Shown piece after piece: positions 1 to 15,838 of a stretch of DNA of 64,000 nucleotides (position 1 is its first letter; every line of letters starts with the position of its first letter). Source of the stretch: Promethearchaeota archaeon (GTDB lineage: Archaea > Asgardarchaeota > Lokiarchaeia > Sigyniarchaeales > SOKP01); contig JAHLWS010000068.1 of assembly GCA_019057795.1 (NCBI GenBank), forward strand, positions 1 to 64,000, read 5' to 3'. The notes under the pieces were generated by a model. That model made no database searches. It saw nothing but the letters and a program-made list of their open reading frames with translations, and was not told the origin of the DNA. The translations under genes were made by a program, and so were the position numbers.

Positions 1-185
1 GTTTCAATCTTCTTTTTGAAGCTATTTATTCTGTGACTTTTGAGATTTGTAAAATTATAGTGAAGCGTGGTCGAGTTTCAATCTTCTTTTTGAAGCTATT
101 TATTCTGTGACGTCCAAGATTTACAGATGCCAACGAAAAAATAGAAATGTTTCAATCTTCTTTTTGAAGCTATTTATTCTGTGAC
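1..185 (-). CRISPR. CRISPR array, leader-proximal end: 3 repeats of 37 bp and 2 spacers of 37 bp; probably continues left of the window
   Basis: Identical repeats at 1-37, 75-111 and 149-185. The minus strand reads GTCACAGAATAAATAGCTTCAAAAAGAAGATTGAAAC, with the canonical ATTGAAAC 3' end and a CTTC/GAAG stem. Spacers at 38-74 and 112-148. Confidence 0.97.
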
Positions 186-1208
186 TCTTATATATTATAT
201 TATAATAATGTAGGAACAAATATATATTTTTTTTCAATCTTTTAGTAAATATTTTAATCGATTAAATTAAGATTTAATTTTATTTAAAAAATAGGAATTA
301 GCAATTTTTTAGAATATTTCAGAAAAATAATACTAATTTTTAGTAGTTTAGACATGAACTTGAATCTTAACGCTTTTGAATTTTTATAATATCTTTCGAA
401 GATCAAGTAAAGTTAAGATCATTTAAAAGGAAATTCGGAGTAATTAAGATTTAATTTAGGGCTTATAATTTAATTTAATAGCAGGGATTTTACGATATGA
501 GTTGAATTGATCGATTAGAGGGAAGTTTTTATGATCTTTTAAATTCAAGACCATTTCTATTGGAAATGAATGTTAAGGCAAGTTCATTTGATAAAGAGAT
601 TTTACATTTGATAGAAGTTAATTGAACTTCATATAAATCAGAGTTTATTTAGCATATAAACTAAACTTCGGAAAAAAATAATTTTATATTCGAAATTACT
701 TTTATACTTTAAATATTATTTCATAAAAAAAGTTAGTAAAAAATTAGTAAATAATTAAGAAGAAAATTTAGATAATTAAAGATAGAGAAGAATTGGAGAA
801 ATTTTCTAATTTTTAATTATTAACACCATTGTGTATATAAAATTTATCGAAATAATTCTAAAATTTAATTTAACTCCTCGTGATTTGCAGTTTTAAGGTT
901 GCTAATTCTAATATATAAATCTAACTAAAAGAGATTTCAGATTAGTTTAGTTTTGGAAAAGTAAAGATTTAAAAACAAAAAATATATTAATATTTTTGTT
1001 AGCGACATAAATCTCAACACGAGATATACTCTTAAATTCAAAAAAGAATTGAATGTAGGAAATCAAATTTCAAAGATATTATAATAAGAAAGGAATCTAA
1101 AATATTTTAGTTCGTAAACACTGAAAGAAGAGTAAGAATTTTTAACGGGAATATGGATTCTTTTTTATCTTTTAAGAAATATAGAAGTAATTCGATGAAG
1201 GTATTTTC
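186..1208. promoter_or_regulatory. CRISPR leader plus divergent promoter region of the adaptation cluster
   Basis: About 1 kb, very AT-rich and ORF-free, lying 5' of the array in its inferred orientation and 5' of the first gene. Confidence 0.7.
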
Positions 1209-2525
1209 ATGGCTCTAAAATTTAATTCAATTGAATCTATTGCAATAAAGGAAGGATTAATAGGGGATGTATATGAAGGGACAAAAGGAGAACTTGATGA
1301 TTTTGTTATAAATGCATTATCTAATTATTATCCTATTAAAATTGTTAAGCGATTTATTTTCCGTCCGTTATTAGGAAGATGGTATCCATATATAGATGTA
1401 AAATCACCTGGTTATAGTATGCAATTATCATTATTTTTTGGAAAATTAAATATGACCTTTTCATTAGAAAAAATTTGTTCTGTATGTGGAACAGGATTAG
1501 CCTCTAAAAATTCGATTGATAATTATCTACCTTTAGGATTATGTGAAAAATGCCTTTTAAAATTAAATTACAATTACTGGTATTGTCTGAATAAGGTCAA
1601 AAATGAACACAATAGTATAGATCATTCAACTCAAACCCCTAAAGGGAATCAAATATGTGAAAATTTACTTATACCCTCGTGTGGTTTTCCTATGGTTTCG
1701 GAAAAAACGAATCCATGCTTAAAGAATCATGGTATTGGATTAGTAATAACAGATAACATTACGCTTAAAATAATAATTGGGACTTTAGATACTTTAAAAT
1801 ATAAAATAATACGCGGTGGAGGGATAATTGGAATAATTTTAGGTTATTCCGACAGAATTATGAATATTGAAATTTTAGGTGAAATTTTTAAAGATTTCTT
1901 ACAATTTATTCGTTCTTGTGCTAAAGAATTTAATGATAACACTAAATTTAGCTCAAGGAATTTTGATTTTTTCCAAGAAACAACAGTTAAAGTCGCAGTA
2001 AATCACGATATTCTCAGCTCTATCAATGAATCAAAGGAAAACACAATTAGTTGGTGGTTTTTAATAAATTTCCTAAGATATTATGGAAATTACGGAGCAA
2101 AAGTTCTTGTTAGGGATTTATTAAGGAGACCAATAATTATTTTAAAATTCATAGTTGCTCAATTATTAGAGAGTAAAATATTTAATTTTGAAATTCTGGG
2201 AGTCGTAGAAATTTTCAAATCTTTTTCTCCATTAAATCAATCTCTAAGGGATTTTTGTGAAAAAAGAATTCAGAAGAATTTTAAGATTGAGAGAATTAAT
2301 GATTTCTGGTCAACTTTTAGAAAATATTTAAGAAGAAGAGAAATATCCAATTTTTCGAATTTTTTTGACTTAGAATTCATTTCAGATTTAGAAAATATTG
2401 AGAAGGAATTAGAGATTAAAGAAGTGTTAACTTCTTTCGGTCCAAATTTAGTAATAGATTCAAATTTATCAAAAAATCCAATTATAATAAGTATAGATGA
2501 TTTGATCGGTAGAACGATATTTTAG
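1209..2525 (+). CDS. DUF2797-like Cys-rich protein, cas1-linked
   Basis: CSVCG..CEKC..C..C..C..CLKNH cluster followed by LKIIIGT..IIRGGG, and a C-terminal FGPNLVI..ISIDDLIGR, matching the DUF2797 layout. Its TAG abuts the cas1 ATG. Confidence 0.65.
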   Translation: MALKFNSIESIAIKEGLIGDVYEGTKGELDDFVINALSNYYPIKIVKRFIFRPLLGRWYPYIDVKSPGYSMQLSLFFGKLNMTFSLEKICSVCGTGLASKNSIDNYLPLGLCEKCLLKLNYNYWYCLNKVKNEHNSIDHSTQTPKGNQICENLLIPSCGFPMVSEKTNPCLKNHGIGLVITDNITLKIIIGTLDTLKYKIIRGGGIIGIILGYSDRIMNIEILGEIFKDFLQFIRSCAKEFNDNTKFSSRNFDFFQETTVKVAVNHDILSSINESKENTISWWFLINFLRYYGNYGAKVLVRDLLRRPIIILKFIVAQLLESKIFNFEILGVVEIFKSFSPLNQSLRDFCEKRIQKNFKIERINDFWSTFRKYLRRREISNFSNFFDLEFISDLENIEKELEIKEVLTSFGPNLVIDSNLSKNPIIISIDDLIGRTIF

Positions 2526-3623
2526 ATGAGGAAAGAAAGGATGGATATTATTTTAGAAACTCCAGGGACTCGTGTTGGAAAAAAATTAGAGATGTTAAAG
2601 ATTGATGTTTTAAATAAAAGCCCTATTCAAGTTCCTATTAGGGAAGTGGAGAGTATAATTATGGGAAGTGGAGTTCAGATAACATCTCAAGCACTTCAAG
2701 CATTATCTTCACATGCTGTGAATATTGTGTATACAAAATTAGGTAAACCCTATGGATTGTATACACCGTTTGCAAATGTAGGTACGGTATTTACGAGACG
2801 ACAGCAATTATTAGCTTACGAAGATTGGCGCGGAGTGTATTTAGCAACTCGATTTGTTTTTGCTACATTAGAAAATAAAAGGCGTTTACTTCTATATTTT
2901 GCTAAAAGTCGTAAAAAAACAAACCCAGCCAAATATATCCGTTTAAAAGCAGCAGCAAGACATATCGGAAAAATGATTGATGTGTTATTAAAATTTTCAA
3001 AAAACCAAGCAAAAGGTAAAAAAATTAGTGATGTAAGAATGAATTTAATGGGAATTGAAGGTCGTGCTACATCAATCTATTTTTTAGAATATGGAAACTT
3101 ATTTCCACAAGAATTTAAAGTATTAAATCGCACTCGCCGCCCTCCGAGGGATCCTGTAAACTCTTTACTGTCCTTAGGATATACTGTTCTATTGGGGCAT
3201 GTAATTACAGGAATTGCTGCAGCAGGATTGGAATTATATGGAGGATATTTACATAGCGATCGATCAGGAAAACCATCATTAGGATTGGACTTACTTGAAG
3301 AATTTAGGCAACCCGTAATAGATCGCCTTGTAGCAAGATTAATTCAGAAGAAACAATTTAAACCTAAAGATTTTATTAATAGTTTACACGGATTTCGGTT
3401 GAATGATGATAAAAGATCTTTCTATTACAAGAAATTAAGAAGTGAAATTAATGGAGGGAGCAACGAACCAGAAGAATTATTTGGACAACCTAAAGTTAAA
3501 GTTAGTAAAGATAAAGCCGTAAGGTTGAATTATAAAAGAGCAATGGTTCGACAAGCTAGGAGATTAGCAAACTATTTAATCGGGGCGACTTCTTCTTATG
3601 AACCATTTATAATGAATTGGTAA
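2526..3623 (+). CDS. cas1: CRISPR-associated endonuclease Cas1
   Basis: LMGIEG, RRPPRDPVNSLLSLGY, GYLH and DLLEEFRQPVIDR motifs; catalytic E/H/D present. Confidence 0.98.
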   Translation: MRKERMDIILETPGTRVGKKLEMLKIDVLNKSPIQVPIREVESIIMGSGVQITSQALQALSSHAVNIVYTKLGKPYGLYTPFANVGTVFTRRQQLLAYEDWRGVYLATRFVFATLENKRRLLLYFAKSRKKTNPAKYIRLKAAARHIGKMIDVLLKFSKNQAKGKKISDVRMNLMGIEGRATSIYFLEYGNLFPQEFKVLNRTRRPPRDPVNSLLSLGYTVLLGHVITGIAAAGLELYGGYLHSDRSGKPSLGLDLLEEFRQPVIDRLVARLIQKKQFKPKDFINSLHGFRLNDDKRSFYYKKLRSEINGGSNEPEELFGQPKVKVSKDKAVRLNYKRAMVRQARRLANYLIGATSSYEPFIMNW

Positions 3624-3701
3624 TCTTAAATTAATGAAAATAAAATTGGTAGCGAGAAATATTTGAATAAATTGAACAACAATTTTTAGATGTGAAATTG
3701 A

Positions 3702-3995
3702 ATGAAATTTATAATAATTTATGATATCCCAATCGAATTTGATCCAATTAGAGCAAAAATATCCAATGTATTACTCTCTTATAATTTAATTCGCTTAAAT
3801 TTTTCAGTTTTTTTCGGCAATTTAACATACAATCTTGCAGAGGAAATAGCTTTAAGGTTGAAGAAAATAATGGGAAAGGTTCCAGGAGATGTACGAATTA
3901 TTCCTATATGCAAATCTTGTCATTCAAAAGCAATTACAGTAAAATCAAAATTCGCTAATGGATATAAAATGATAGAAGATATCCTTTCTATGTAA
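3702..3995 (+). CDS. cas2: CRISPR-associated protein Cas2
   Basis: IIIYDI start, SVFFG, C-terminal IPICKSC; follows cas1. Confidence 0.95.
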   Translation: MKFIIIYDIPIEFDPIRAKISNVLLSYNLIRLNFSVFFGNLTYNLAEEIALRLKKIMGKVPGDVRIIPICKSCHSKAITVKSKFANGYKMIEDILSM

Positions 3996-4089
3996 TTTTT
4001 AGCACATTATCTTTAGAAACAATATTTAAAAGTAAGAATAAAAAATATAAAATTGTAAATAGACTAAACAATAAGAAAACCTTTAATTT

Positions 4090-4755
4090 ATGAATTCTAT
4101 AGATTCAGAAAATATAAAAGATTATATTTTGAATAAACATCAGTTTAATATTCTTAGATTAAATAATCCAATGATTAATTTATATGAAAAACCAATAATT
4201 GGGACTGAAGAAATAAGACAATTTTCATATTGTAAAAGAATTTTATTCTTTAGACATATAATCCATGCACCAATGAAACAATCATATAAAATGGAATTTG
4301 GAACTAAGAAACATAACATGCTTCAAAAGATTTCTAATAAATCGAAAGAGAATTATACTCAAAAATATTTTAACATTTATTTAACGGATCCTTTTCTCGG
4401 TTTAGTGGGACTTATTGATTATTTTGAGTTTAACGGAAAGGAAGCATATCCAGTAGAAATAAAATCTGGAAATATTCCTCTGGAAAATATTGATAATCCT
4501 CATAAACATCAAGTAACAGCCCAAGCAATATTAATTGAAAAAAATTTTGATTTTTTAGTTAAAAAAGTTCGTGTATATTATTCAAAATATAAAAAGATCG
4601 TTGATTACTCAATAGGAGTAGAAGATAAACTCAAAGTTATCGAAATAATTAGTGATATTAGAAAATTATTAGCATTAGAGCAAATACCCGACCCAACAAA
4701 AGATAGAGGGAAATGTATTGATTGTGAATGTCGAAATTATTGTTTAAGAGGATAA
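4090..4755 (+). CDS. cas4: CRISPR-associated exonuclease Cas4
   Basis: YCKR, GLID, VEIK, QVTAQA and CxxCxxxxxC Fe-S cysteines. Confidence 0.95.
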   Translation: MNSIDSENIKDYILNKHQFNILRLNNPMINLYEKPIIGTEEIRQFSYCKRILFFRHIIHAPMKQSYKMEFGTKKHNMLQKISNKSKENYTQKYFNIYLTDPFLGLVGLIDYFEFNGKEAYPVEIKSGNIPLENIDNPHKHQVTAQAILIEKNFDFLVKKVRVYYSKYKKIVDYSIGVEDKLKVIEIISDIRKLLALEQIPDPTKDRGKCIDCECRNYCLRG

Positions 4756-4778
4756 TTCTGGAAGAAGTGAAGATATAA

Positions 4779-5963
4779 ATGAAAGATATTTTTCAATCCA
4801 ATCCGCTCAAAGAATTTAGAATATTTATAAATAACTCTATTAACCAAATGAAAGAGTCTAAAGGCAAAAATGAGAAAATAGATATTAGTTATAATAATAT
4901 TTTTGGACTTAATATTTGCATCGATGGTATTAACATTGCGATAGACCATTGGAACCCTAATGCAGATATAATATTTGTATCACATGCTCATATGGATCAC
5001 ATCCCTTATATTCCAGAAAAAAACCTAAAAGATTTGGAAAATAAACAATCTCATATAAAATTTATCTGTTCTAAAATTACAAAAAAAATAGCAGAAGCTC
5101 GCACAAGAGGAAGATTTAATTTTCCTGAAAAATTATGGTTGCTTGGAAAAGATAAAAATTATCCTCAATCAATAGATTATAATGGAATTATATTAACTTC
5201 AATTGAGAATGGGCACACTTATGGCTCTTTAAGCTTATTAATTGAGGGTTCCGAAAAAATTCTTTATACAAGCGATTTCATTACAAAAGATCGCCTATTA
5301 TTTAATGGACAACAAGTTATTAAAGGGTTAATTCCAATTAATTGCGATCGATTAATCATGGAATGCACATTTGGGGCTCCAAATTTTATTTTTCCAAGTT
5401 TTCAAGAAATTCGAAAAGAATTAAATAAATATATAGAAAAGGAGATATCTAAAGGGCATCCCGTCATTATTTTAGGCTATGCCTTTGGTAAAAGCCAAAT
5501 TACTTTAAATATTCTAGACCCCTCCCATAGAATTATACTCGATAAAAATATCGTCAAATTAACGGATATTTTAGAAAATGAAGGAATTAAAATCACTAAA
5601 TGGGAACCTTACGGTAATTTTAATAAAAAACAATTAATACGCTTAAATGACTATATTCTTCTAATTCCCCCTTATTATATATTTAGAGAACCTTATAAAA
5701 GTCTAATTAATGCTGGAGCAAAAGTAGTCTATCTTTCAGGAAAAGTTTTAAATGAATCTTCCCGCAGAGAATTTCCCGCAGAAAAATATATCCCATTTAG
5801 CGACCATTGTGATTTTAATGATTTAATAGAATTTGTTGGTAGATGTAACCCCAAAAAGATATACTTAAAACACGGGAAAATCGAAGAATTTTCATATTAT
5901 CTATCAAAAATTAATAGAAATCAACAAATATTTTGTATTCGCGAGAAAATTAAATTAGTTTAA
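4779..5963 (+). CDS. MBL-fold beta-CASP nuclease
   Basis: SHAHMDH, GH, YTSD, ECTFG, YAFGKSQ, FSDH and KHG motifs. Confidence 0.9.
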   Translation: MKDIFQSNPLKEFRIFINNSINQMKESKGKNEKIDISYNNIFGLNICIDGINIAIDHWNPNADIIFVSHAHMDHIPYIPEKNLKDLENKQSHIKFICSKITKKIAEARTRGRFNFPEKLWLLGKDKNYPQSIDYNGIILTSIENGHTYGSLSLLIEGSEKILYTSDFITKDRLLFNGQQVIKGLIPINCDRLIMECTFGAPNFIFPSFQEIRKELNKYIEKEISKGHPVIILGYAFGKSQITLNILDPSHRIILDKNIVKLTDILENEGIKITKWEPYGNFNKKQLIRLNDYILLIPPYYIFREPYKSLINAGAKVVYLSGKVLNESSRREFPAEKYIPFSDHCDFNDLIEFVGRCNPKKIYLKHGKIEEFSYYLSKINRNQQIFCIREKIKLV

Positions 5964-6450
5964 TCAAACCAAATAATTTAAAAAAAGAATTATTGAAAGC
6001 TAAAATGATTAAAAATTATTAAATTTGTTAAGTTCAATAGTTTTATATAGAGCGATTATAAACATATTAAACCCATTTGAAAGATAAAATTTTATATTGA
6101 ATAATTTTTAATCATAACAATTAATAAAATCATTAAACTTATCAAAATGATTTTTATGATTAATTTGGGTATGCTTAATTTATAGTTAGGATTACCAATT
6201 TCAATATCTTGCTTTGAAAAATATTTTAACATATTTCAGAGCTAAAAAAGTAAAGATTTATACACTTATTTTTAATAAATCATAATGGATCATATCAATA
6301 TAATTATTAAAAAAGACATAGTTTCAAGAAAAAAATTATATTTTTTTATTAAAAAAATTTTTGAAGAGCATAATATTCATACTAGAGATTATTGTACAAT
6401 CAAAGACAGAGACGTATGCATAGTTATATTTGATGAATCTAAAGAAAAAT

Positions 6451-6547
6451 AAAATAACTAATTTAGCTTCAATTTGAAGATTGAAATTAATGTTTTATAA
6501 AGATTGTAAAAAGAAAAAAACATTAGCTTCATAAAGAAGATTAAAGA
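6451..6547 (+). CRISPR. Degenerate two-repeat mini-array (candidate regulatory crRNA-like RNA)
   Basis: TAGCTTCAATTTGAAGATTGAAAT (6464-6487; 20/24 to the repeat 3' part) and TAGCTTCATAAAGAAGATTAAAG (6524-6546), 60 nt apart, with the CTTC/GAAG stem kept. Confidence 0.75.
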
Positions 6548-6686
6548 AAATCTGATAAAAAATTAAAAATTTGTTAAGTCTTAAACATTTAAATATTAAA
6601 ACCCATTATTTAATATCAAACATAAGATAATGAACTCCTTGGAGAATAAATAAATTATTAAAGAATTTAGAAAACGATTTGTTAAT

Positions 6687-8207
6687 ATGATTGATAGCAT
6701 AGTTAATCTAGGAAAAGCCTTTGTAGCATTAGAAAGAAATATTGAATTTAATGATGTAAATTCATTAACTTTTAATGAAATAGTTCAATATTTTTCAAAT
6801 CCTCCTTTTAATTTGGATTATTTTATGAATGATATAGAAAATAACTATAAATTTCCAAATATCTTTTTCATTGAATTTAAAATTATTGACAATAATGTTG
6901 AATTTGTTAAAATTAGTAAGGAAATATATAAACAAGAATATGATGATAAAGTTCTAAATTATCCAGCAAGAGGAGGGGTTTATAGTACACCAACTTTAAA
7001 AATAATTCCCAAAGGAAAAAAAACAGATGACATTAAGAAAAAAATTGCAAATGGTATTGAAAATTCATTAAATCATATTAAGAAGTATTTTAATAAATTT
7101 GAAAAAGATAAAAAATACAAAGATTACACGCTTTTAACTAAGATAAGCAAAATTTTTGGAGAAAATTTTTCACAAATTAAACAGCAATTATTAGAGAAAC
7201 AATTAAAGATTTTTCCTTATGAGAATAAAATAAATACAGGTATTAATTCTCTACTTTCTATTAAAATTGATAATAAATTACCCTTTAAGATTAAAGAAAT
7301 AGTCGAAGCTTTTAATGAAAAATTAATGAGTGATTACGACTTTAAAAAAGTAAGTGAAATTAATATTTGTAGCTTATGCCATGATGATAATTCAGATAAA
7401 TTATTATCTGGAAATTTTTCGCCATTTACATTTTATACTTCTGATAAAAGAGGATATATAGCAAGTGGTTTTAATAAGAAATTTGCATATTTAAATTATC
7501 CAGTATGTAAAAAATGCGCGTTTTATGCACTTATTGGTGCTAATATATTAAAAACTCAATTCAATTTTAAACTTGGAGGAATTAAATTTTTCTTAATTCC
7601 ACGAATGTTACTTTCAGATGCTCATATGAAAAAATTCTTAATTCAATTCAGTGATGTTAGAAATAAATTATTTACTAAGAAAATTAGTTATGAACAATTT
7701 TCTCAAGGTGAAGAATTAATTCTTGATGTTTTGGCGGGTTTTAATAACTCTATGGTTTTCAATTTTTTATTTTACGAATTATCTGGTCCTGGTAATTCAG
7801 TATTCAATATATTATTACTTATTCAAGATGTATCTCCAAATCGAATTCAAACAATTAATGATGAAATAAAAAATGTTGATAGCTTTGATAGAAAACCATT
7901 ATTTCCTGGAGTAAATGGTGATAAATATCCTATGGTATTTTCATTTAAAAATTTAAGAAATTTATTTTATGATAAAAATTTAAGATATTTTGATAGAGAT
8001 AAATATTTACAAACCTTATGGATGCTTTTTACTGGAAAAAATATAATGTTTAAGAGACTATTAACATTTTTTTTTAAAAAATTAAAAAATAACTTATATT
8101 TAAATAATGCTAGTACAATCAATTTAAGCTATAATATTAAAGAATTTATTCCAATCGTTTTATTATTTGTGAAATTAAACCAATTAATAATTAAAGGTGA
8201 AAAATGA
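6687..8207 (+). CDS. cas8b: Type I-B large subunit Cas8b (Csh1/TM1802-like), lacking the C-terminal domain
   Basis: CSLC..FTFYTSDKRGY..NYPVCKKC..FFLIP..IQDVSP motifs; first gene of the Cascade operon. Confidence 0.9.
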   Translation: MIDSIVNLGKAFVALERNIEFNDVNSLTFNEIVQYFSNPPFNLDYFMNDIENNYKFPNIFFIEFKIIDNNVEFVKISKEIYKQEYDDKVLNYPARGGVYSTPTLKIIPKGKKTDDIKKKIANGIENSLNHIKKYFNKFEKDKKYKDYTLLTKISKIFGENFSQIKQQLLEKQLKIFPYENKINTGINSLLSIKIDNKLPFKIKEIVEAFNEKLMSDYDFKKVSEINICSLCHDDNSDKLLSGNFSPFTFYTSDKRGYIASGFNKKFAYLNYPVCKKCAFYALIGANILKTQFNFKLGGIKFFLIPRMLLSDAHMKKFLIQFSDVRNKLFTKKISYEQFSQGEELILDVLAGFNNSMVFNFLFYELSGPGNSVFNILLLIQDVSPNRIQTINDEIKNVDSFDRKPLFPGVNGDKYPMVFSFKNLRNLFYDKNLRYFDRDKYLQTLWMLFTGKNIMFKRLLTFFFKKLKNNLYLNNASTINLSYNIKEFIPIVLLFVKLNQLIIKGEK

Positions 8208-8638
8208 TAACCGAAATTATTACAGATGAAAATAATAAAGGAAAATATAGTGATATAATTAATAATTATTTTGAAAAGTATAAGGATTTTTTTAAAAATG
8301 TCGAATCTAGAGCAGTTTTTCTTGAAGGTGTTTTAGCGGGCCTTTTATTAGAAATTCAAAGAGTTCAAAACCCAGATAAGAAAGGTAATGAGGCTTTTTG
8401 GAGATCTTTACATAATTTACGGATAGATAATCGGATACTTCTAGAGCTTTTTCCAAAAATAATAAATAAATTAAAACAATTACAGCGTCCTTATACGAAT
8501 TTAGTGAGTGAAATATCAAAATTTTTACAAGATGCTGGTAAAAAATGGAATTTATCTAATATTGAACTTAGTTGGTATTTTACTCACGGATTAGCTTCAT
8601 ATAAATATTTTAAAATAAAAAGAGGTAAAAAAATATGA
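8204..8638 (+). CDS. cas11: Stand-alone Cas11-like small subunit (C-terminal domain of Cas8b)
   Basis: FLEGVLAGLLLEIQ..KLKQ..WNLS..ELSWYFTHG resembles the Cas8b C-terminus; GGTGA RBS and ATGA overlap. Confidence 0.8.
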   Translation: MITEIITDENNKGKYSDIINNYFEKYKDFFKNVESRAVFLEGVLAGLLLEIQRVQNPDKKGNEAFWRSLHNLRIDNRILLELFPKIINKLKQLQRPYTNLVSEISKFLQDAGKKWNLSNIELSWYFTHGLASYKYFKIKRGKKI

Positions 8639-9588
8639 GTAAAAATGAGATAATAAATAACCGTGCAGAAATAGCATTTTTTTATGATGTTAGAGATAAT
8701 AATCCTAATGGAGACCCTTTGGCAGAAAACAAACCAAGGATGGATGAAGAGACGGGAATAGGTATCGTAACTGATGTTCGACTTAAAAGAACTATTAGAG
8801 ATTATTTAAGGGATTATGAAAATCAAATAATTTTAATAGACGATTTTGAAAAAGACGATAATACTATTAAAATGGCTAGAGAAAGAGCTGAGGATTTTAT
8901 AAAAAAAAATAAAGATTCCAAACCATTAGATCTTTTAATAGAGAATTGCATTGATGTTAGATTATTTGGATGTGCTATTCCTTTGGGAGAAAAAAAGAAA
9001 TCGATCCAATTAACTGGACCTGTTCAATTTAATTATGGCAGGTCAGTTCATAAAATCGAGCCAATCCTCCTTCAAGGGACTGGAGCTTTTGCAAGTAGAC
9101 CAGGTATGAGACAACGTACATTTAGAAATGATTATATAATACATTACGGATTATATAGATTCTATGGTATAATCAATGAGAAATTAGGAGAAATAGCGAG
9201 ATTAACTGAATCAGACATTAAATTATTGATCAAAGCTCTTTGGAAAGGAACTGAAAGATTACAATCGAGATCAAAAATAGGACATTCTCCCCGATTGCTA
9301 GTTAAACTAGAATATAATGAACCCGAATTTTTTATCGGACAAATCGACAAATTAATTATCACTTCTAAAATAGATCCATCAATAGACGACTTAGCACTCC
9401 GAGATATTTCTGAATTTATTTTTGATATAGAGCCATTAGAGCAAAGAATAAAATCTAACATAGATAAAATAAAATGTGTATCTCTTAAGGCAGATCCAAG
9501 CTTAAAATTCAAGGATGATAAGAAAATAATAGATATTATGAATAAATGGAAAGATGAGAAAATTCCTATTGAGGATTTGAATTTTTAA
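8635..9588 (+). CDS. cas7: Type I-B Cas7 (Csh2)
   Basis: NPNGDP..PRMD, TDVRLKRTIRDY, DVRLFG, TGPVQF, SRSK. Confidence 0.97.
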   Translation: MSKNEIINNRAEIAFFYDVRDNNPNGDPLAENKPRMDEETGIGIVTDVRLKRTIRDYLRDYENQIILIDDFEKDDNTIKMARERAEDFIKKNKDSKPLDLLIENCIDVRLFGCAIPLGEKKKSIQLTGPVQFNYGRSVHKIEPILLQGTGAFASRPGMRQRTFRNDYIIHYGLYRFYGIINEKLGEIARLTESDIKLLIKALWKGTERLQSRSKIGHSPRLLVKLEYNEPEFFIGQIDKLIITSKIDPSIDDLALRDISEFIFDIEPLEQRIKSNIDKIKCVSLKADPSLKFKDDKKIIDIMNKWKDEKIPIEDLNF

Positions 9589-9600
9589 GGTATTTTTATA

Positions 9601-10410
9601 ATGGATGAATGTTTAACTTTTGATATTTCGGGAGATTTTGGATACTTTAAGAAGTTTTATACTACTTCATCTCCATTAACTTATGAAATCCCCCCAAAAA
9701 CAGCATTAACAGGGATAATAGGAGCCATTCTAGGATTATCTTATGAGCAACGATATGAATTATTTGAATGTAAATTTGGAATTAAAATTTTAAATGCAAT
9801 TAGAAAGATATATTTAGGAATTAATTGGTTAAATACTAAAGTAAGAAATACAAAAAATTTTCCTAATTCTAATAAAGATTTTCTAAATAGTCTACACTTA
9901 CCTCCTAAACCAAATATTGCTGTGTTTCTAGGAATGGAATGGTTAGGTCAATCACCCCATACTCAAGCAAAGTTAGAATTGCTAAAAGAACCAAAATACC
10001 GAATTTATTATCCAAATACGAACATTTTTTTTAATAAACTTCTAGAAAAAATTAAGGCTCATAAAAGCTATTTTACACCATTTTTAGGAGCAAGTGAATT
10101 TATTTGTAATTTTAAATTTAATGAACTTTTATATTTTACTAAAATTGAGAATAATTCCTCAGAAATCGAAATTAGTACAATTGTTCCAACAAATTTATTA
10201 AACCTTGAAAGCTCCAATCCAATTAATTTTATACATTCAAATTTATACAAAATAAATACTCCTTATATAATGAAAAACCCCCGAATTATACAAGATTATC
10301 AAGATATTCTATATAATCCCTTTGGGAAATCAATTAAGGTTGTTGTGAAAGAATATTATGAATTAAGAGCTAAAAATAATAAAAAAATTGAGAATGTTGT
10401 TTTCTTCTAA
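9601..10410 (+). CDS. cas5: Type I-B Cas5
   Basis: GDFGYFKKFYT..SPLTYEIPPKTALTGIIGAILG, PFLG. Confidence 0.96.
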   Translation: MDECLTFDISGDFGYFKKFYTTSSPLTYEIPPKTALTGIIGAILGLSYEQRYELFECKFGIKILNAIRKIYLGINWLNTKVRNTKNFPNSNKDFLNSLHLPPKPNIAVFLGMEWLGQSPHTQAKLELLKEPKYRIYYPNTNIFFNKLLEKIKAHKSYFTPFLGASEFICNFKFNELLYFTKIENNSSEIEISTIVPTNLLNLESSNPINFIHSNLYKINTPYIMKNPRIIQDYQDILYNPFGKSIKVVVKEYYELRAKNNKKIENVVFF

Positions 10411-13003
10411 TTTGTATAAAATAGAATCTCATCCAAATAAACCATTGAAAAAACATCTTCTAAATGTTATTAAAAGCTCTTTAAAATCTCTTTCATCTAT
10501 TTTAGAAAACAGTAATTTAAGCGATTATGAAGATTTTTTAAAAGATTATCTAATAATTATCGGATATTCCCATGATTTAGGAAAATCTACAGTTTATTTT
10601 CAAAATAAGTTATATTCTGAAAAGAGTATTAGGACAAGAGAAAGTTCTCATTCCCTTATTTCTTCTTTATTTACTTTAGTATTACTAAAAAATTATTTTG
10701 ATAATTATTCAAATCATAATAAAATAAAAGAATTTAAAGAGTTATTTATAATAGCAGGTTTTTCAATTGTTAAAAATCATCATTCTAATCTTAAGAATCT
10801 TTCTTTTCAGTTAGGAGAATTAACATCAAAATATAAAAATCAAGAATATTTAATGAAACAATTGAGCTCTTTAAAAAAAAATTATGATTACTTAGAAAAT
10901 CTTTATCATATTATAATAAAAGACAATATTAACATATTAAAATGTTTAACATTCAAAAATGTTTTTGAAATTGTTGAAGCAATAGTAGAGAAAATGGTTA
11001 ATGGTAAATCTGAAAATATATCAACAAGAACTATTTATCCAGAGATATCGTCTGGGTTTAATATTTTCAAAAGTAAAAAGAACAATGATGATTTGGAAAA
11101 TAAGATCTTTTTATATATTCTAATTAAATTAATCAATTCTATTTTTTTAGAAGCAGACAAAATGGATGCTGCTTTTGATGGAACAAAAGAATTGCAATAT
11201 GAAATATTAAAAGAATTACCGAAAAGAATTCACCAAAGAATTGATAATCTCAGAAATAATACATTAGACAAAGAAAACCACATTTTTATTGACCGAAATA
11301 AAATATTTGAAGAATCTAAAAGTAATTTGATAAAGTATCTTAAAGAAGAAAATAGTTCTAAAGTTTTGACTTTTAATGCTCCAACTGGATTTGGTAAAAC
11401 ACTTTCTGTTATTAATTGTGTATCCGAATTAATCAATTTCTTAAATAAAGGATCAAATAAAGGAGTTATTAATCAAAAGAAATTGATTTTTAACAAAATA
11501 ATATACTGTTTACCATTTTTGAGCATAACAGATCAAATTTTTAATGAATTTCAAAAAATATTAATACTTGAATCTAACAAACCCTCAGAATTAGTAATTT
11601 GTCATAATCACAGAACTGAGATGAATTATTACAATATTAATGAAGAGCAATTTGCAGGATTAGATGCTCGATTGTTAATTGAGGGATGGAATTCTAATAT
11701 TATTGTAACGACATTTCATCAATTATTTTATTCCTTGTTTTTCAATATTAATATGTTAAACATAAAATTCCATAAAATAATTAATAGTGTTGTTATTTTA
11801 GATGAGATTCAGAGCTTTCCTTTAAAATATTGGATATTAATAAGAGAAGTATTTCAGACTTTAATAAAAAACTTTAATGTTAAAATTATTCTAGTTTCAG
11901 CAACATTACCAATGATTTTTAATGAAAAATCTTCTTTTGAACTTGTGAAAGATAAAGAACAATACTTTAATAGTTTAGACCGTATAAACATACTTATTCA
12001 AAAAAGATTTCATTATGAACTGATTGACCTTTTAGATTTTTTCATTCATTATTTAAAAAATCATCCTGAAGAAAAAAAAATTTTATGTGTTTTCAATACA
12101 AGAAAGTCAGCAAGACAATTTTTTCATGCTCTTAATAGAAAAATAGAAAATCGACAAAATTTTTATCTTTTTTTTCTTTCAAGTGATGTGCTTATTAAGG
12201 ATAGGCAAGAAAGGATAAAAATTATAAAAGAATATCTTTCAGAGCGAAATTTAAAAAAGAAATTAATTTTAATTAGTACTCAAGTTATTGAAGCAGGGAT
12301 AGATTTAGATTTTAATGTAGTTTTTCGAGATTTTGCCCCATTAGATTCTTTAATTCAAGTAGCAGGCAGGTGCAATCGTAATAATAGTTTAAAAAAGAAA
12401 GGAGAATTTTATATATTTAGATTATTTGACATTGAAAATGAAAATTATTTTTCAGATTATATTTACGACCTTACTCTTTTAGAAATAACTAAGAAGATAA
12501 TATTCAAATTTAATAATAACTCCGAATTGAATTCCAAATTTCTTAAACTATCAGAAAATGCGTGGTTTGAAATGTCTAAAGAATATTTTCAAAAGATTCA
12601 AAAAGAAAAATACTCTACTCCAGATTATTCTTTGAGAATTCTTAATGAAATATATAAGTTTAATTTTTTTGACATTTCAAAAAAGTTTAAATTAATCGAA
12701 GATTTTTCAAACTTTCAATTCTATTTAAATATTAATGAAGAATCAAATAATATTTGGAAAAAATTCCTTGATTTAAAAAATGAGAGAGATTTAACAAAGC
12801 GGTATTCAAAATACATAAATCTAAAATCAGATCTAGAATCTTATATTCTTAATTATAATGCTAATAGGACAGAAACTAAAAATATTACAGATTTTATGCT
12901 TAAATATAAACTTAATACTTCTAAAAGAAATTTTATTTATATTCCAAGAGAATTAATAGAATTAATATATGATATATGTGGTTTGAATTTTGAACGGTTT
13001 TAA
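10388..13003 (+). CDS. cas3: Cas3 HD nuclease-helicase
   Basis: HDLGK, HH, ADKMDA; APTGFGKT, DEIQ, SAT, QVAGRCNR. Confidence 0.97.
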   Translation: MRMLFSSNLYKIESHPNKPLKKHLLNVIKSSLKSLSSILENSNLSDYEDFLKDYLIIIGYSHDLGKSTVYFQNKLYSEKSIRTRESSHSLISSLFTLVLLKNYFDNYSNHNKIKEFKELFIIAGFSIVKNHHSNLKNLSFQLGELTSKYKNQEYLMKQLSSLKKNYDYLENLYHIIIKDNINILKCLTFKNVFEIVEAIVEKMVNGKSENISTRTIYPEISSGFNIFKSKKNNDDLENKIFLYILIKLINSIFLEADKMDAAFDGTKELQYEILKELPKRIHQRIDNLRNNTLDKENHIFIDRNKIFEESKSNLIKYLKEENSSKVLTFNAPTGFGKTLSVINCVSELINFLNKGSNKGVINQKKLIFNKIIYCLPFLSITDQIFNEFQKILILESNKPSELVICHNHRTEMNYYNINEEQFAGLDARLLIEGWNSNIIVTTFHQLFYSLFFNINMLNIKFHKIINSVVILDEIQSFPLKYWILIREVFQTLIKNFNVKIILVSATLPMIFNEKSSFELVKDKEQYFNSLDRINILIQKRFHYELIDLLDFFIHYLKNHPEEKKILCVFNTRKSARQFFHALNRKIENRQNFYLFFLSSDVLIKDRQERIKIIKEYLSERNLKKKLILISTQVIEAGIDLDFNVVFRDFAPLDSLIQVAGRCNRNNSLKKKGEFYIFRLFDIENENYFSDYIYDLTLLEITKKIIFKFNNNSELNSKFLKLSENAWFEMSKEYFQKIQKEKYSTPDYSLRILNEIYKFNFFDISKKFKLIEDFSNFQFYLNINEESNNIWKKFLDLKNERDLTKRYSKYINLKSDLESYILNYNANRTETKNITDFMLKYKLNTSKRNFIYIPRELIELIYDICGLNFERF

Positions 13004-13022: not shown

Positions 13023-13886
13023 ATGCTTAAATTAACATTTGAGTTATATCCGGAAGACGGAAGAATCAAGCCTTATGGTCATCCTTATGGTTATATTTTC
13101 CGTGGTGTTATAATGAAGTGGTTAAGTGATATTAAGCCAGAATTAGTTCATAAGCTTCACGAATTCGAGGAAATCCGGCCATATTCCATTAATTATATCA
13201 TCCATAAAAAGGTTCCTAAGCTTGACTTTATCATCGTTTCTTACGATGATGAGATACAAGATGCATTATTTCAAGATTTAATCACTTCTGAAAAAAATAT
13301 AATACATATTGGTCAAAAGGATTACTATATTTCCCAAGTGAGATTTGAGCGTATTAATATTCGAGATCTAATCGATCAATCAAATCCTGTAAAGTCATTT
13401 AACCTTAATTTTATACGCCCCATATATTTTAACACGAGTAAGGGGGATTATCCAGTGAGATTCCCTATTCCTATCCTTTTATTCGGTAATTTGGCGAAAT
13501 TATGGAACGAAACTGCGAAAAATACCTCTGAAATTGACCGAGAAAATTTTTTAAATTGGGTTAATGTTCATGTGTATGTTAGTGGTTATAAAATGAAGTC
13601 AGTTCGCACCGAAATAGGCAAGCCAAAACCTGTGGTAGGAGGTTTAGGAAATGTAAGTTATAGAGTTGTGAAAATAAACAAACATTATTATAAACATATG
13701 TTAAAAGAAATGAATCGTGAATATGATTACAAATTCGTTAACGATGATTATTCGGGTAATTGTCGCTGGTTAGAGATTTTGTGTAAGCTTGGTGAATATA
13801 CGAATGTTGGTGCTAATCGGACGGCGGGAATGGGAGTAATTCATTATTATCCAGGAAATTATTTAACGGAAAAAAACCTGTTATAG
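13023..13886 (+). CDS. cas6: Cas6 endoribonuclease
   Basis: KLHE..RPYS, FP.P..LF..L..W and the G-rich loop GEYTNVGANRTAGMG. Confidence 0.93.
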   Translation: MLKLTFELYPEDGRIKPYGHPYGYIFRGVIMKWLSDIKPELVHKLHEFEEIRPYSINYIIHKKVPKLDFIIVSYDDEIQDALFQDLITSEKNIIHIGQKDYYISQVRFERINIRDLIDQSNPVKSFNLNFIRPIYFNTSKGDYPVRFPIPILLFGNLAKLWNETAKNTSEIDRENFLNWVNVHVYVSGYKMKSVRTEIGKPKPVVGGLGNVSYRVVKINKHYYKHMLKEMNREYDYKFVNDDYSGNCRWLEILCKLGEYTNVGANRTAGMGVIHYYPGNYLTEKNLL

Positions 13887-14212: not shown

Positions 14213-15838
14213 GGCTAATTTTACAAAAGTAGGATCAATTATAAATTAGCCCTTTTTTTCATTATCTACATTGATATCACCCAATTTTGTATGTTTGGTA
14301 ATTCTAAAACTTTTAAATTGTTCATGTAAAAACTCCCGCGTACATTTCTACTTATTTGGATCTCTTCTAATATTTCGGGCCGATTTTGGACTATTTCAGT
14401 CGCACGAATCCTTCTCTCCACGGATTTAACGGTTTTCGGACCTCTGAGCCTCATCTTCGAATGGAGGATAGAGTTTTTATTCTCGGAAAGATTATATTGA
14501 ATGCTCAGTAGAGCAAAGAGATTAAGTACTTCTGTCAGCGCCGTTGCGAGCGAGGCTCGCAGATTCTTACTTATCTTTACCGTTTTCCTATACGGGTCTA
14601 CTTTTGCGTAAAACCTTTTTCCCTTGTCAAACACTTTAAATACGCCCCCTCTTACCCTGCTTCTTTTTCGTTTTTGGAGGGTTTTTTTTGCGCTTGTTGT
14701 TCGAACCCTTTGGTCTGCCCTTTTTCTTTGAAGGTGGAGGATTTAAAGGAGCTCTCGTTGTCATGTAGTAGCCCTCGCGCTTGGCACGCTTCTTGGTAAT
14801 GTCTGTTTTCACGCCAATTTCAGTGGTTATTCTTTCCGTGTCGGTATATTCGTGTAGCTTTATGACGGCTTTACCGAAGGGTTTTTTATGCTTATGGATA
14901 ACATGGATGATTTCTCTACCCAAATTTTTGACCATCGCAATGGTACTACCCCAAGCGTCCGATGTTACGATTGCAATTGGGTACTTAGTATTCCGTTCTG
15001 CCTCGTCAAACACTTCGCGCATGTCTTTTTCTTTCCTCGTTGGCGAGACTTTTATACCGAGCGTCTTGCGGGACTCATATCCCGTGGCAACGATAATGTA
15101 GATGGGCTTACCTTCAATCTCCAAGAATGTCTCGTCAATGGCAATGGCTCTATCTGGCTGAGGTATATTCACGAGGGAGTCCAGCGTTTGATGCTTCTCA
15201 ATTGCCGTCTCAATCTCAGTCCTAAGAACAGAAATCTGAGACGGTGATACGCCATATTTTTTGGCAATTGTCTTGTTTTTCGCCCCGTCCTTCAGCAAGT
15301 CGTAATATAACTGCTTAAGTTTGGAATTGATTAATTTCTTATACTCGAAAGATGTAGTTACAATAAATTGTCTTCCTTTTTTGCGTTTTCTTTTACTTCT
15401 TTCTTTTAAGCATGCTGGATTTTTACAGATAAAGCATTCAACCCTATTACTACCGCTTTTTTTAGTTCCATTGGTCCCGATCATCGAGCTACCACAATCA
15501 GGACACTTAATTTTTATTTTGAAGAGCGGGATTTGAAGGCCATTCACCATTACGGCAAAAATGGTTCGCCAAATTATTTCTAAATTTTTGAAATTTCTTT
15601 CAGTCATGAAGAATAATTATTATTTAAAAGATAAATGAGTTTTGATGAGAAATCAAATGTTTTAAGATAATTTGAATAAATGATTAAATGCGTTCTTATA
15701 GTCGGCAAAAATCTATAATTTGCAGAAATATAATGTCGTGCAAAAGTGGTAGAAGATCAAAGAAAAGTAGTAAAATGGCTTAATTTACGAAACTAGATGA
15801 ATCAGTTTATAATTGATCCTTCTTTTGTAAAATTAGCC
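14213..15838 (-). mobile_element. Insertion sequence (IS6-like, DDE) with 33-bp terminal inverted repeats
   Basis: GGCTAATTTTACAAAAG(T/A)AGGATCAATTATAAA at 14213-14245 and inverted at 15806-15838 (1 mismatch); no flanking target duplication seen. Confidence 0.9.
14266..15607 (-). pseudogene. DDE transposase split by a frameshift (ORFs 14636-15607 and 14266-14634)
   Basis: Zn ribbon CPDCG, HTH, AIDETF and TSDAW in ORF1; NLSE.KNS in ORF2. Removing one G from AGGGGGC (near 14645) joins them as KRGVFKVFDKG. Confidence 0.8.

Follow-up and report, generated by a model that had tools for sequence, protein, structure and literature searches.

A conserved degenerate mini-CRISPR upstream of cas8b in a Loki-type Asgard archaeon: a candidate CreA-type guide for an adjacent small gene

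Upstream of cas8b in the type I-B CRISPR locus of a Loki-type Asgard archaeon, a spacer-like sequence is enclosed by two repeat-like copies that lie apart from the array and adjoin the cas operon; the question raised by this arrangement is whether it encodes a regulatory guide RNA and, if so, which promoter such a guide would address. To our knowledge, regulatory mini-CRISPRs (CreA, CreR and others) have been recognised recently, and their tested cases come from haloarchaea and bacteria. The original prediction was of a CreA- or CreR-like regulatory mini-array; its anatomy and conservation are borne out below, whereas the target sites then proposed and an action on the cas8b promoter are not. 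The reading that accounts best for the locus is that the mini-array is probably a creA-type gene, whose crRNA-like product would pair partially, together with Cascade, at the promoter of an adjacent small ORF and repress it.

The window, by which is meant the whole 64,000-nt stretch of DNA that was analysed, is the start of contig C68 in a genome of 4.95 Mb, 31% GC and 87 contigs. Its nearest Cas8b relative, at 70% identity, is found in another Promethearchaeota archaeon MAG (genome G211, contig L003), and a second contig with the small ORF (L022) is identical to the window and therefore comes from the same organism. Promoters of the archaeal TATA type are to be expected in an Asgard archaeal host; a scan for bacterial sigma-70 promoters and terminators, irrelevant in such a host, gave nothing above shuffled sequence. 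The locus is of type I-B, with Cas8b, Cas7, Cas5, Cas3 and Cas6, an adaptation module and a repeat ending in ATTGAAAC, and its genes follow the order array, 438-aa gene, cas1, cas2, cas4, MBL/beta-CASP nuclease, intergenic region, cas8b, cas11-like, cas7, cas5, cas3, cas6 (Table 1). The plus strand of the array reads GTTTCAAT onward, and its sense strand, the one that ends in ATTGAAAC, is the minus strand, an orientation supported by a leader motif adjoining the first array repeat that is common to the related genome G211. The mini-array consequently lies on the opposite strand and is co-directional with cas8b.

Two further features of the operon may be recorded here. What corresponds to the Cas11-like C-terminal part of Cas8b is encoded by an ORF of its own, overlapping the end of cas8b, and since the same split occurs in all fetched loci of the subfamily (G187, L052-L055) it is a stable feature of that subfamily and no assembly error. 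Just downstream of cas6, on the minus strand at 14636-15607, is a DDE-transposase-like ORF with weak Pfam matches. As had been noted before, no regulator of the Csa3 or WYL type is visible: Pfam and NCBIfam recognise none in the locus or its flanks. Rfam gives no match in positions 1-7000.

Table 1. Features of the window in and around the candidate regulatory mini-array
Feature	Position	Strand	Remarks
CRISPR array, leader-proximal end	1-185	-	37-nt repeats ending ATTGAAAC, 37-nt spacers; array cut by the contig end and continued on contig C19
Intergenic region, nuclease gene to cas8b	5964-6686		723 nt
Possible repeat remnant before distal block	5982-5999	+	comprises loop, 3' stem, ATTGAAAG; scores 24 in a local alignment, weak on its own
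Distal copy of promoter block	6021-6049	+	TATA-like TTTATATA at 6042-6049
Putative TATA-like box ATTTATAC	6255-6262	+	about 23 nt before the ATG at 6285; sequence inference only
Predicted target (protospacer, strand reading like the guide)	6263-6285	-	11/12 pairing positions among 1-14
Predicted PAM, CCA	6286-6288	-	flank TCCA; overlaps codons 1-2 (ATGGAT) of the small ORF
55-aa ORF, candidate Cascade-repressed cargo or toxin gene	6285-6452	+	stop codon overlaps the start of psiR1
psiR1, first degenerate repeat	6451-6487	+	hairpin TAGCTTC-loop-GAAG 6464-6479; 8-nt 5' handle ATTGAAAT 6480-6487
psiS, 23-nt pseudo-spacer	6488-6510	+	guide region extends to 6523
psiR2, second degenerate repeat	6511-6547	+	hairpin 6524-6539 intact; handle decayed to ATTAAAGA
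Proximal cas8b promoter block	6567-6593	+	TTTGTTAAGT, then TATA box TTTAAATA (6586-6593)
cas8b	6687-8207	+	506 aa, effector complex large subunit
cas11-like	8204-8638	+	
cas7	8635-9588	+	
cas5	9601-10410	+	
cas3	10388-13003	+	
cas6	13023-13886	+	PF10040, E 1.8e-10; presumed processing enzyme for array and mini-array

The anatomy of the mini-array is as it was first described. The hairpins of its two copies start at 6464 and 6524, 60 nt apart (74 nt in the array), the 23-nt short spacer lies between the copies, and 139 nt separate the end of psiR2 from the ATG of cas8b; the array lies on the other strand. Both copies read TAGCTTC, a 5-nt loop and GAAG, after which psiR1 continues with ATTGAAAT and psiR2 with ATTAAAGA. 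Decay is found in the 5' 13 nt of both copies, which in psiR1 are not repeat-like, and in the handle of psiR2, while the handle of psiR1 and the 3' hairpin of psiR2 are kept. The kept handle agrees with the array handle at 7 of its 8 positions and is identical to the normal repeat handle of G211 and of a more distant relative, G187. The distance from handle to next hairpin is 36 nt in the mini-array against 50 nt in the array, which makes the guide region 14 nt shorter than that of a normal crRNA.

This likeness to the repeat is not one of overall identity. Of the full 37 nt, no more than 23 in one copy and 25 in the other agree with the repeat, which alone is not significant; the signal resides in the contiguous core of hairpin plus handle. 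With at most one mismatch allowed, the core TAGCTTC-N5-GAAGATT, kept with changes in the loop, is found five times in the window (three array copies and the two of the mini-array) against 0.04 expected, far beyond chance, and in the 4.95-Mb genome the exact core is confined to the array, the two mini-array copies and one solitary copy on contig C21. The two-copy pattern is present in 2 of 400 genomes of the phylum, both times directly upstream of cas8b, and a reversed control pattern in none. In RNA folding of the mini-array the repeat hairpin has only 4 bp (CUUC/GAAG) and z-scores are unremarkable.

The solitary copy on C21 (97665-97701, equal to L024:5666-5702) is identical to the array repeat over its 3' 29 nt, including ATTGAAAC, and is followed by no second copy. 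The stop codon that it overlaps belongs to an ORF of 518 aa to which Pfam gives no match; this ORF interrupts a pyruvate:ferredoxin oxidoreductase operon, standing between its gamma/delta and alpha subunit genes.

If the mini-array is to act as a guide, it might be expected to find a PAM-flanked match near a promoter of its own locus. With CCN taken as the working PAM, the intergenic region offers 12 candidate sites, the best of which is read on the minus strand from 6285 to 6263, at the start of the small ORF. It matches the pseudo-spacer at positions 1, 3-5, 7-11, 13, 14, 16 and 18 and differs at 2, 6, 12, 15 and 17, and only 23 of 20000 shuffled guides match as well at a CCN site (p ~0.001). 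Type I Cascade leaves every sixth guide position unpaired, and partial, PAM-proximal pairing is what would be expected of its use as a repressor. A mismatch at seed position 2 usually weakens binding in the type I systems that have been studied, and the guide in this assembly has such a mismatch. In a co-occurring strain variant the guide carries a T at this position (6489 A>T) and would match the site of the window at 12 of 12 positions, a score reached by 0 of 20000 shuffles.

The matched site lies between a TATA-like box, predicted to be the archaeal promoter of the small ORF, and the ATG of that ORF, whose transcript may be leaderless; in G187 the layout is alike, with TATA-like box, target and ATGGAT. 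The pseudo-spacer matches, in its PAM-proximal part only, a PAM-flanked site at a promoter predicted from sequence alone. The PAM was inferred as CCN from only three guide-target pairs (the window, G187 and the metagenome contig L054) and not from real protospacers: the 17 spacers had no matches in their own genome and none in a phage collection, and a DNA search across the family returned almost only arrays.

A second, more decayed guide-like site lies on the minus strand at 6113-6135, where positions 1-9 match except 6 and the flank is GTT; when the two loci are aligned, this site occupies the position of the G187 target. The stretch 6075-6139 appears to be an older tandem copy of 6213-6289, a unit composed of TTTGAAAG, the TATA-like box and the target.

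The targets first suggested for the guide, on the minus strand near 6579-6590 and 6614-6625, do not hold: each is at chance level, with several mismatches in the pairing seed and without a CCN PAM. The variant alters guide position 2 together with base 6623 of the second candidate, and the pairing becomes no better. The seed-plus-PAM scan of locus promoters that had been recommended gave a match at the start of the small ORF and no CCN-flanked one at the cas8b TATA box. Exact words of at least 10 nt shared by the guide and the cas locus are only runs of A.

An exhaustive protein search placed the window in a small subfamily with a Cas8b of about 500 aa, from which four contigs were fetched (L052-L055); a Cas8b scan of metagenomes gave no relatives. 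In G187, which belongs to a different genus, the genes follow the same order (437-aa gene, cas1, cas2, cas4, MBL nuclease, intergenic region, cas8b), although identity to the window proteins is only 53% for the MBL nuclease, 50% for Cas7 and 28% for Cas8b. Within its 694-nt intergenic region are an ORF of 80 aa, a mini-array in which handle and hairpin are likewise 36 nt apart and, after psiR2, the promoter block TTTGTTAAGT followed by TTTAAATA. The proposed check for conservation upstream of related cas8b genes thus has a positive outcome in a distant relative, at the same place. The intergenic region of G187 also contains, on the other strand than creA and flanked by TCCA, a site that agrees with the G187 guide at positions 1-20 except 6 and 18, which are positions that type I Cascade leaves unpaired. 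Similarity falls to chance beyond position 20, and none of 3000 shuffled guides did as well.

On L054, a metagenome contig of higher GC whose Cas8b is 34% identical, a mini-array of two copies lies at 632-798 and points away from cas8b; its repeat is a different one, and its ATTGAAAC handle is perfect. Its guide matches at positions 1-17 except 6 a site flanked by CCC and situated about 145 nt upstream of cas8b. This target, in or next to the predicted cas8b promoter, fits a CreR-like layout. Across the three loci, a conserved anatomy is accompanied by a guide-target match next to a common PAM.

The module is not universal in the subfamily. In G211/L003, despite a Cas8b 70% identical, only about 160 nt separate the nuclease gene from cas8b and there is no mini-array; on inspection none was found in L055 either, nor, where the inspection had no cognate repeat to go by, in L052 and L053. 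Its lack in G211/L003 and L055 indicates that the module is dispensable.

A weak repeat-like stretch was also noticed in G187, on the strand of the target, at L051:13704-13750 (plus strand of G187:C225). It consists of CTTTC, an A-rich loop, GAAG, ATT and GAAAT, with small indels, and begins 39 nt after the start of the target, the same spacing as in the mini-array; its alignment score is at background level. It gives a weak hint that the G187 target may have arisen as an inverted copy of a spacer-repeat unit.

The small ORF at the matched site looks coding on several grounds drawn from sequence comparison and modelling. The 55-aa product aligns weakly (E 0.002), with an in-frame gap, to the C-terminal portion of the G187 ORF of 80 aa that has the corresponding location, and single-sequence AF2 models of the two (pLDDT 67 and 75) have in their aligned parts a common strand-helix-strand-strand core. 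Nine substitutions between strains in the 3' part of the ORF comprise four synonymous and five non-synonymous changes, none of them at codon position 2. No homologues of the small ORFs were found in Pfam, in a search of 5.8 billion proteins or in the Atlas, a Foldseek search of the PDB with the models returned only de novo designed proteins, and the language-model 'recognition' score of the small protein is below that of typical proteins. At the ATGGAT that overlaps the PAM, G187 has a mini-ORF of 5 codons and the window the ORF of 55 codons. The product of the 55-aa ORF may be regarded as a candidate cargo or toxin, no more.

Taken together, the kept hairpins and handle amid otherwise decayed copies, and the presence of Cas6 and of all Cascade genes, make it probable that the mini-array is a creA-type gene acting on the small-ORF promoter. 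There is reason to think that the element would work as follows. The mini-array would be transcribed on the plus strand, and Cas6 would cut after the CUUC/GAAG hairpins (after 6479 and 6539) to release an RNA of about 60 nt, made of the handle AUUGAAAU, the 36-nt guide region and the 3' hairpin; a search for RNA evidence listed no run that contains this region. This RNA would be loaded into the type I-B Cascade, and guide nucleotides 1-14 would pair with the DNA at 6263-6285 next to CCA, blocking initiation of the 55-aa ORF. Because the pairing is only partial and PAM-proximal, Cascade would be expected to sit there as a repressor and not to recruit Cas3. The small gene would be off as long as Cascade is present and would come on if the effector were lost, titrated or inhibited, which is the addiction or alarm logic of CreTA; a toxic action of the small protein is supposed in that logic. 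The repressed promoter faces creA and cas8b, and a self-limitation of creA, as well as control of the cas operon through read-through, would therefore be possible. As the predicted target is at the small ORF, some 400 nt upstream of cas8b, the element looks more like CreA than CreR.

The alternative that survives best, although we consider it rather unlikely, is that the mini-array is a non-functional relic of repeat duplication or recombination, and that guide and site resemble each other through common ancestry as an inverted spacer-repeat duplicate. The surroundings lend themselves to such a history, the intergenic region being built of duplicated blocks, with 7 weak repeat-like remnants where shuffled sequence leads one to expect 2.7, and the repeat-like stretch that follows the G187 target with the 39-nt spacing of the mini-array would suit it as well. 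The absence of the module from G211 and L055 is also compatible with a relic, as is the state of the strains, the guide of the window having its seed mismatch and the variant having lost the target. The variant, contigs of which turned up in three public runs (sediment, cold seep) belonging to at least two studies, is about 95-97% identical to the window. It keeps the mini-array with stems unchanged, differing at four loop bases of psiR1, the first base of the handle and guide position 2; 6027-6319 is replaced by 19 nt, which removes the target and the start of the ORF. Base differences from the window reach about 20% over 6395-6489, and over 6490-6622 there are none except one added A, a distribution that suggests a recombination breakpoint inside the pseudo-spacer. 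With a seed mismatch in one strain and a deleted target in the other, both may carry a partly disabled or decaying module.

Neutral decay would nonetheless leave a different record. Loops and flanks vary within the window, in the variant and in G187, at about 50% protein divergence, yet stems and handle persist. In G187 and L054 guide and site are about 90% identical over the PAM-proximal 17-20 nt, with mismatches only at sixth positions, and identity then falls abruptly to chance; moreover, in the place where duplication should have left a repeat there is a CCN flank. None of these features, the kept stems, the sixth-position mismatches, the abrupt drop or the CCN flank, is predicted by neutral decay.

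Quite improbable is the proposal that the element is a CreR proper, whose guide takes Cascade to the cas8b promoter and so auto-represses the effector operon. In its outline the locus does resemble CreR, a stand-alone degenerate mini-CRISPR upstream of the effector genes with partial complementarity to a promoter (Liu et al., bioRxiv 10.1101/2023.03.10.532045), and the mini-array is directly upstream of, and co-directional with, the conserved cas8b promoter block. The L054 target, which lies between its mini-array and cas8b with no clear cargo ORF, points the same way, and in the window itself the targeted promoter is directed toward cas8b, such that read-through could couple the two. The promoter that is matched here is, however, that of the upstream small ORF and not that of cas8b: around the cas8b TATA box at 6586-6593 no CCN-flanked seed match is found, the nearest CCA site (6606, plus strand) reaching 8 of 12 seed positions. 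The two minus-strand stretches of the original prediction lack a PAM and are mismatched in the seed, and the convincing site is far upstream of cas8b, behind a separate promoter block. For the window, control of the small gene remains the better account.

A guide acting in trans, which would have Cascade occupy the promoter belonging to an AbrB/MazE-like gene of contig C64 instead of, or besides, the site in cis, has a comparably low probability. The site at C64:4325-4303 (minus strand; equal to L023) is identical to the guide over 1-16 from position 1, followed after one extra base by 6 more matches, and is the longest match of the guide in the genome. The site coincides in part with a TATA-like motif, some 35-45 nt ahead of the ATG of an operon headed by the AbrB/MazE-like gene. 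A second match of this kind was obtained with 1 of 1500 shuffled guides and with 1.3% of real AT-rich 23-mers of the genome; p ~0.01 is, however, within reach of a genome-wide search. The flank is AAA instead of CCN; C64 measures 5.9 kb and belongs to a MAG whose contamination is estimated at 7.5%, which makes its linkage to the organism uncertain; and relatives of the gene, sought in order to test promoter conservation, were sporadic and partial only. In the AbrB/MazE-like gene the frame is apparently broken in a run of 11 T, and glycosyltransferase-like and YaaC-like genes follow it.

It is very improbable that the two hairpins are merely Cas6-binding or processing sites in a long cas8b 5' leader, serving Cas6 titration or mRNA processing with no guide function, for while both are close to and co-directional with cas8b, and the near-perfect solitary repeat in the unrelated operon on C21 indicates that lone Cas6 sites do occur in this genome, this leaves unexplained the kept 5' handle, the conserved 36-nt spacing and the PAM-flanked seed matches in three loci.

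Several studies have described systems with which a CreA-type element controlling the small gene can be compared. That mini-arrays regulate cas or cargo genes is already established; one survey (Shmakov et al., bioRxiv 10.1101/2023.03.03.530964) puts their frequency in archaeal I-B loci at about 17%, and those that it covers have a degraded distal repeat, spacers of 20-60 bp and intergenic targets in the same locus, some of them controlling cargo or toxin-antitoxin genes. The closest parallel is CreTA of the Haloarcula hispanica type I-B system, with its CreA antitoxin RNA and CreT toxin RNA (Li et al. 2021, via bioRxiv 10.1101/2023.03.10.532045, PMC9458426). Like the window, CreTA has a degenerate two-repeat mini-CRISPR in a type I-B cas locus, next to cas8, in which psiR1 keeps the 5' handle and psiR2 the hairpin (bioRxiv 10.1101/2023.03.10.532045), and a pseudo-spacer whose match to a site at the adjacent small gene's promoter is confined to the PAM-proximal part. 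The differences lie in the host (a haloarchaeon in CreTA, an Asgard archaeon here), in the PAM (TTC in CreTA, CCN as inferred here) and in the layout, which is divergent around the target in CreTA, whereas cargo, creA and cas8b are co-directional here.

The cargo differs as well. CreT is a small RNA in which a mini-ORF of rare codons sequesters tRNA (bioRxiv 10.1101/2023.03.10.532045, PMC9458426), whereas the window and G187 appear to carry a protein gene of 55-80 aa. A circuit of the CreTA type with a protein toxin, in which a CRISPR effector represses a toxic protein gene that is released when the effector is inhibited, is described in one report (bioRxiv 10.1101/2024.01.05.574328); the toxin of that system is phage-derived, whereas the small protein here has no recognisable relatives.

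A limited full-text search of the literature found no description of a CreTA or CreA-type module in Asgard archaea. New features are the lineage of the host, guide-target pairs with a CCN flank whose architecture is conserved between genera, the probable protein cargo and the co-directional layout; compared with the survey of Shmakov et al., the present analysis works out the target, the PAM and the cross-genus conservation in a Cas8b subfamily whose Cas11 gene is separate. The locus thus extends the principle of mini-CRISPR regulation to Asgard (Loki-type) archaea and supplies a testable triplet of guide, target and PAM for a poorly known Cas8b subfamily. The uncharacterised small protein is the likely controlled cargo and, if toxic, would be a new type of toxin in a CRISPR addiction circuit, and the CCN PAM, as inferred here, would make it easier to assign Asgard viruses by means of spacers.

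A further step, tentative and put forward as a possibility somewhat beyond the evidence above, would be to see in the 55-80-aa protein a new toxin or alarm factor held off by Cascade, and hence the first Asgard addiction module of the CreTA type. The two cas8b promoter blocks between which the cassette stands would then also serve as the recombination joint for the exchange of whole effector modules, with guard and effectors swappable as units, and its target might stem from an inverted spacer-repeat duplication.

As to the blocks themselves, the proximal one is conserved with L003/G211, G187 and L055, and in L055 a block of the distal type directly precedes a different cas8b. From its sequence contexts the promoter block looks like a joint at which adaptation and effector modules recombine. 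When L055:1900-2170, from a metagenome contig, is set beside window 5935-6033, the two contigs prove nearly identical through cas4, the MBL nuclease gene and the intergenic DNA beyond it, up to the block ending in TTTGTTAAGT; past the block L055 has a different cas8b (29% identical) and no mini-array. A partial copy of the promoter block is also found at the deletion joint of the strain variant.
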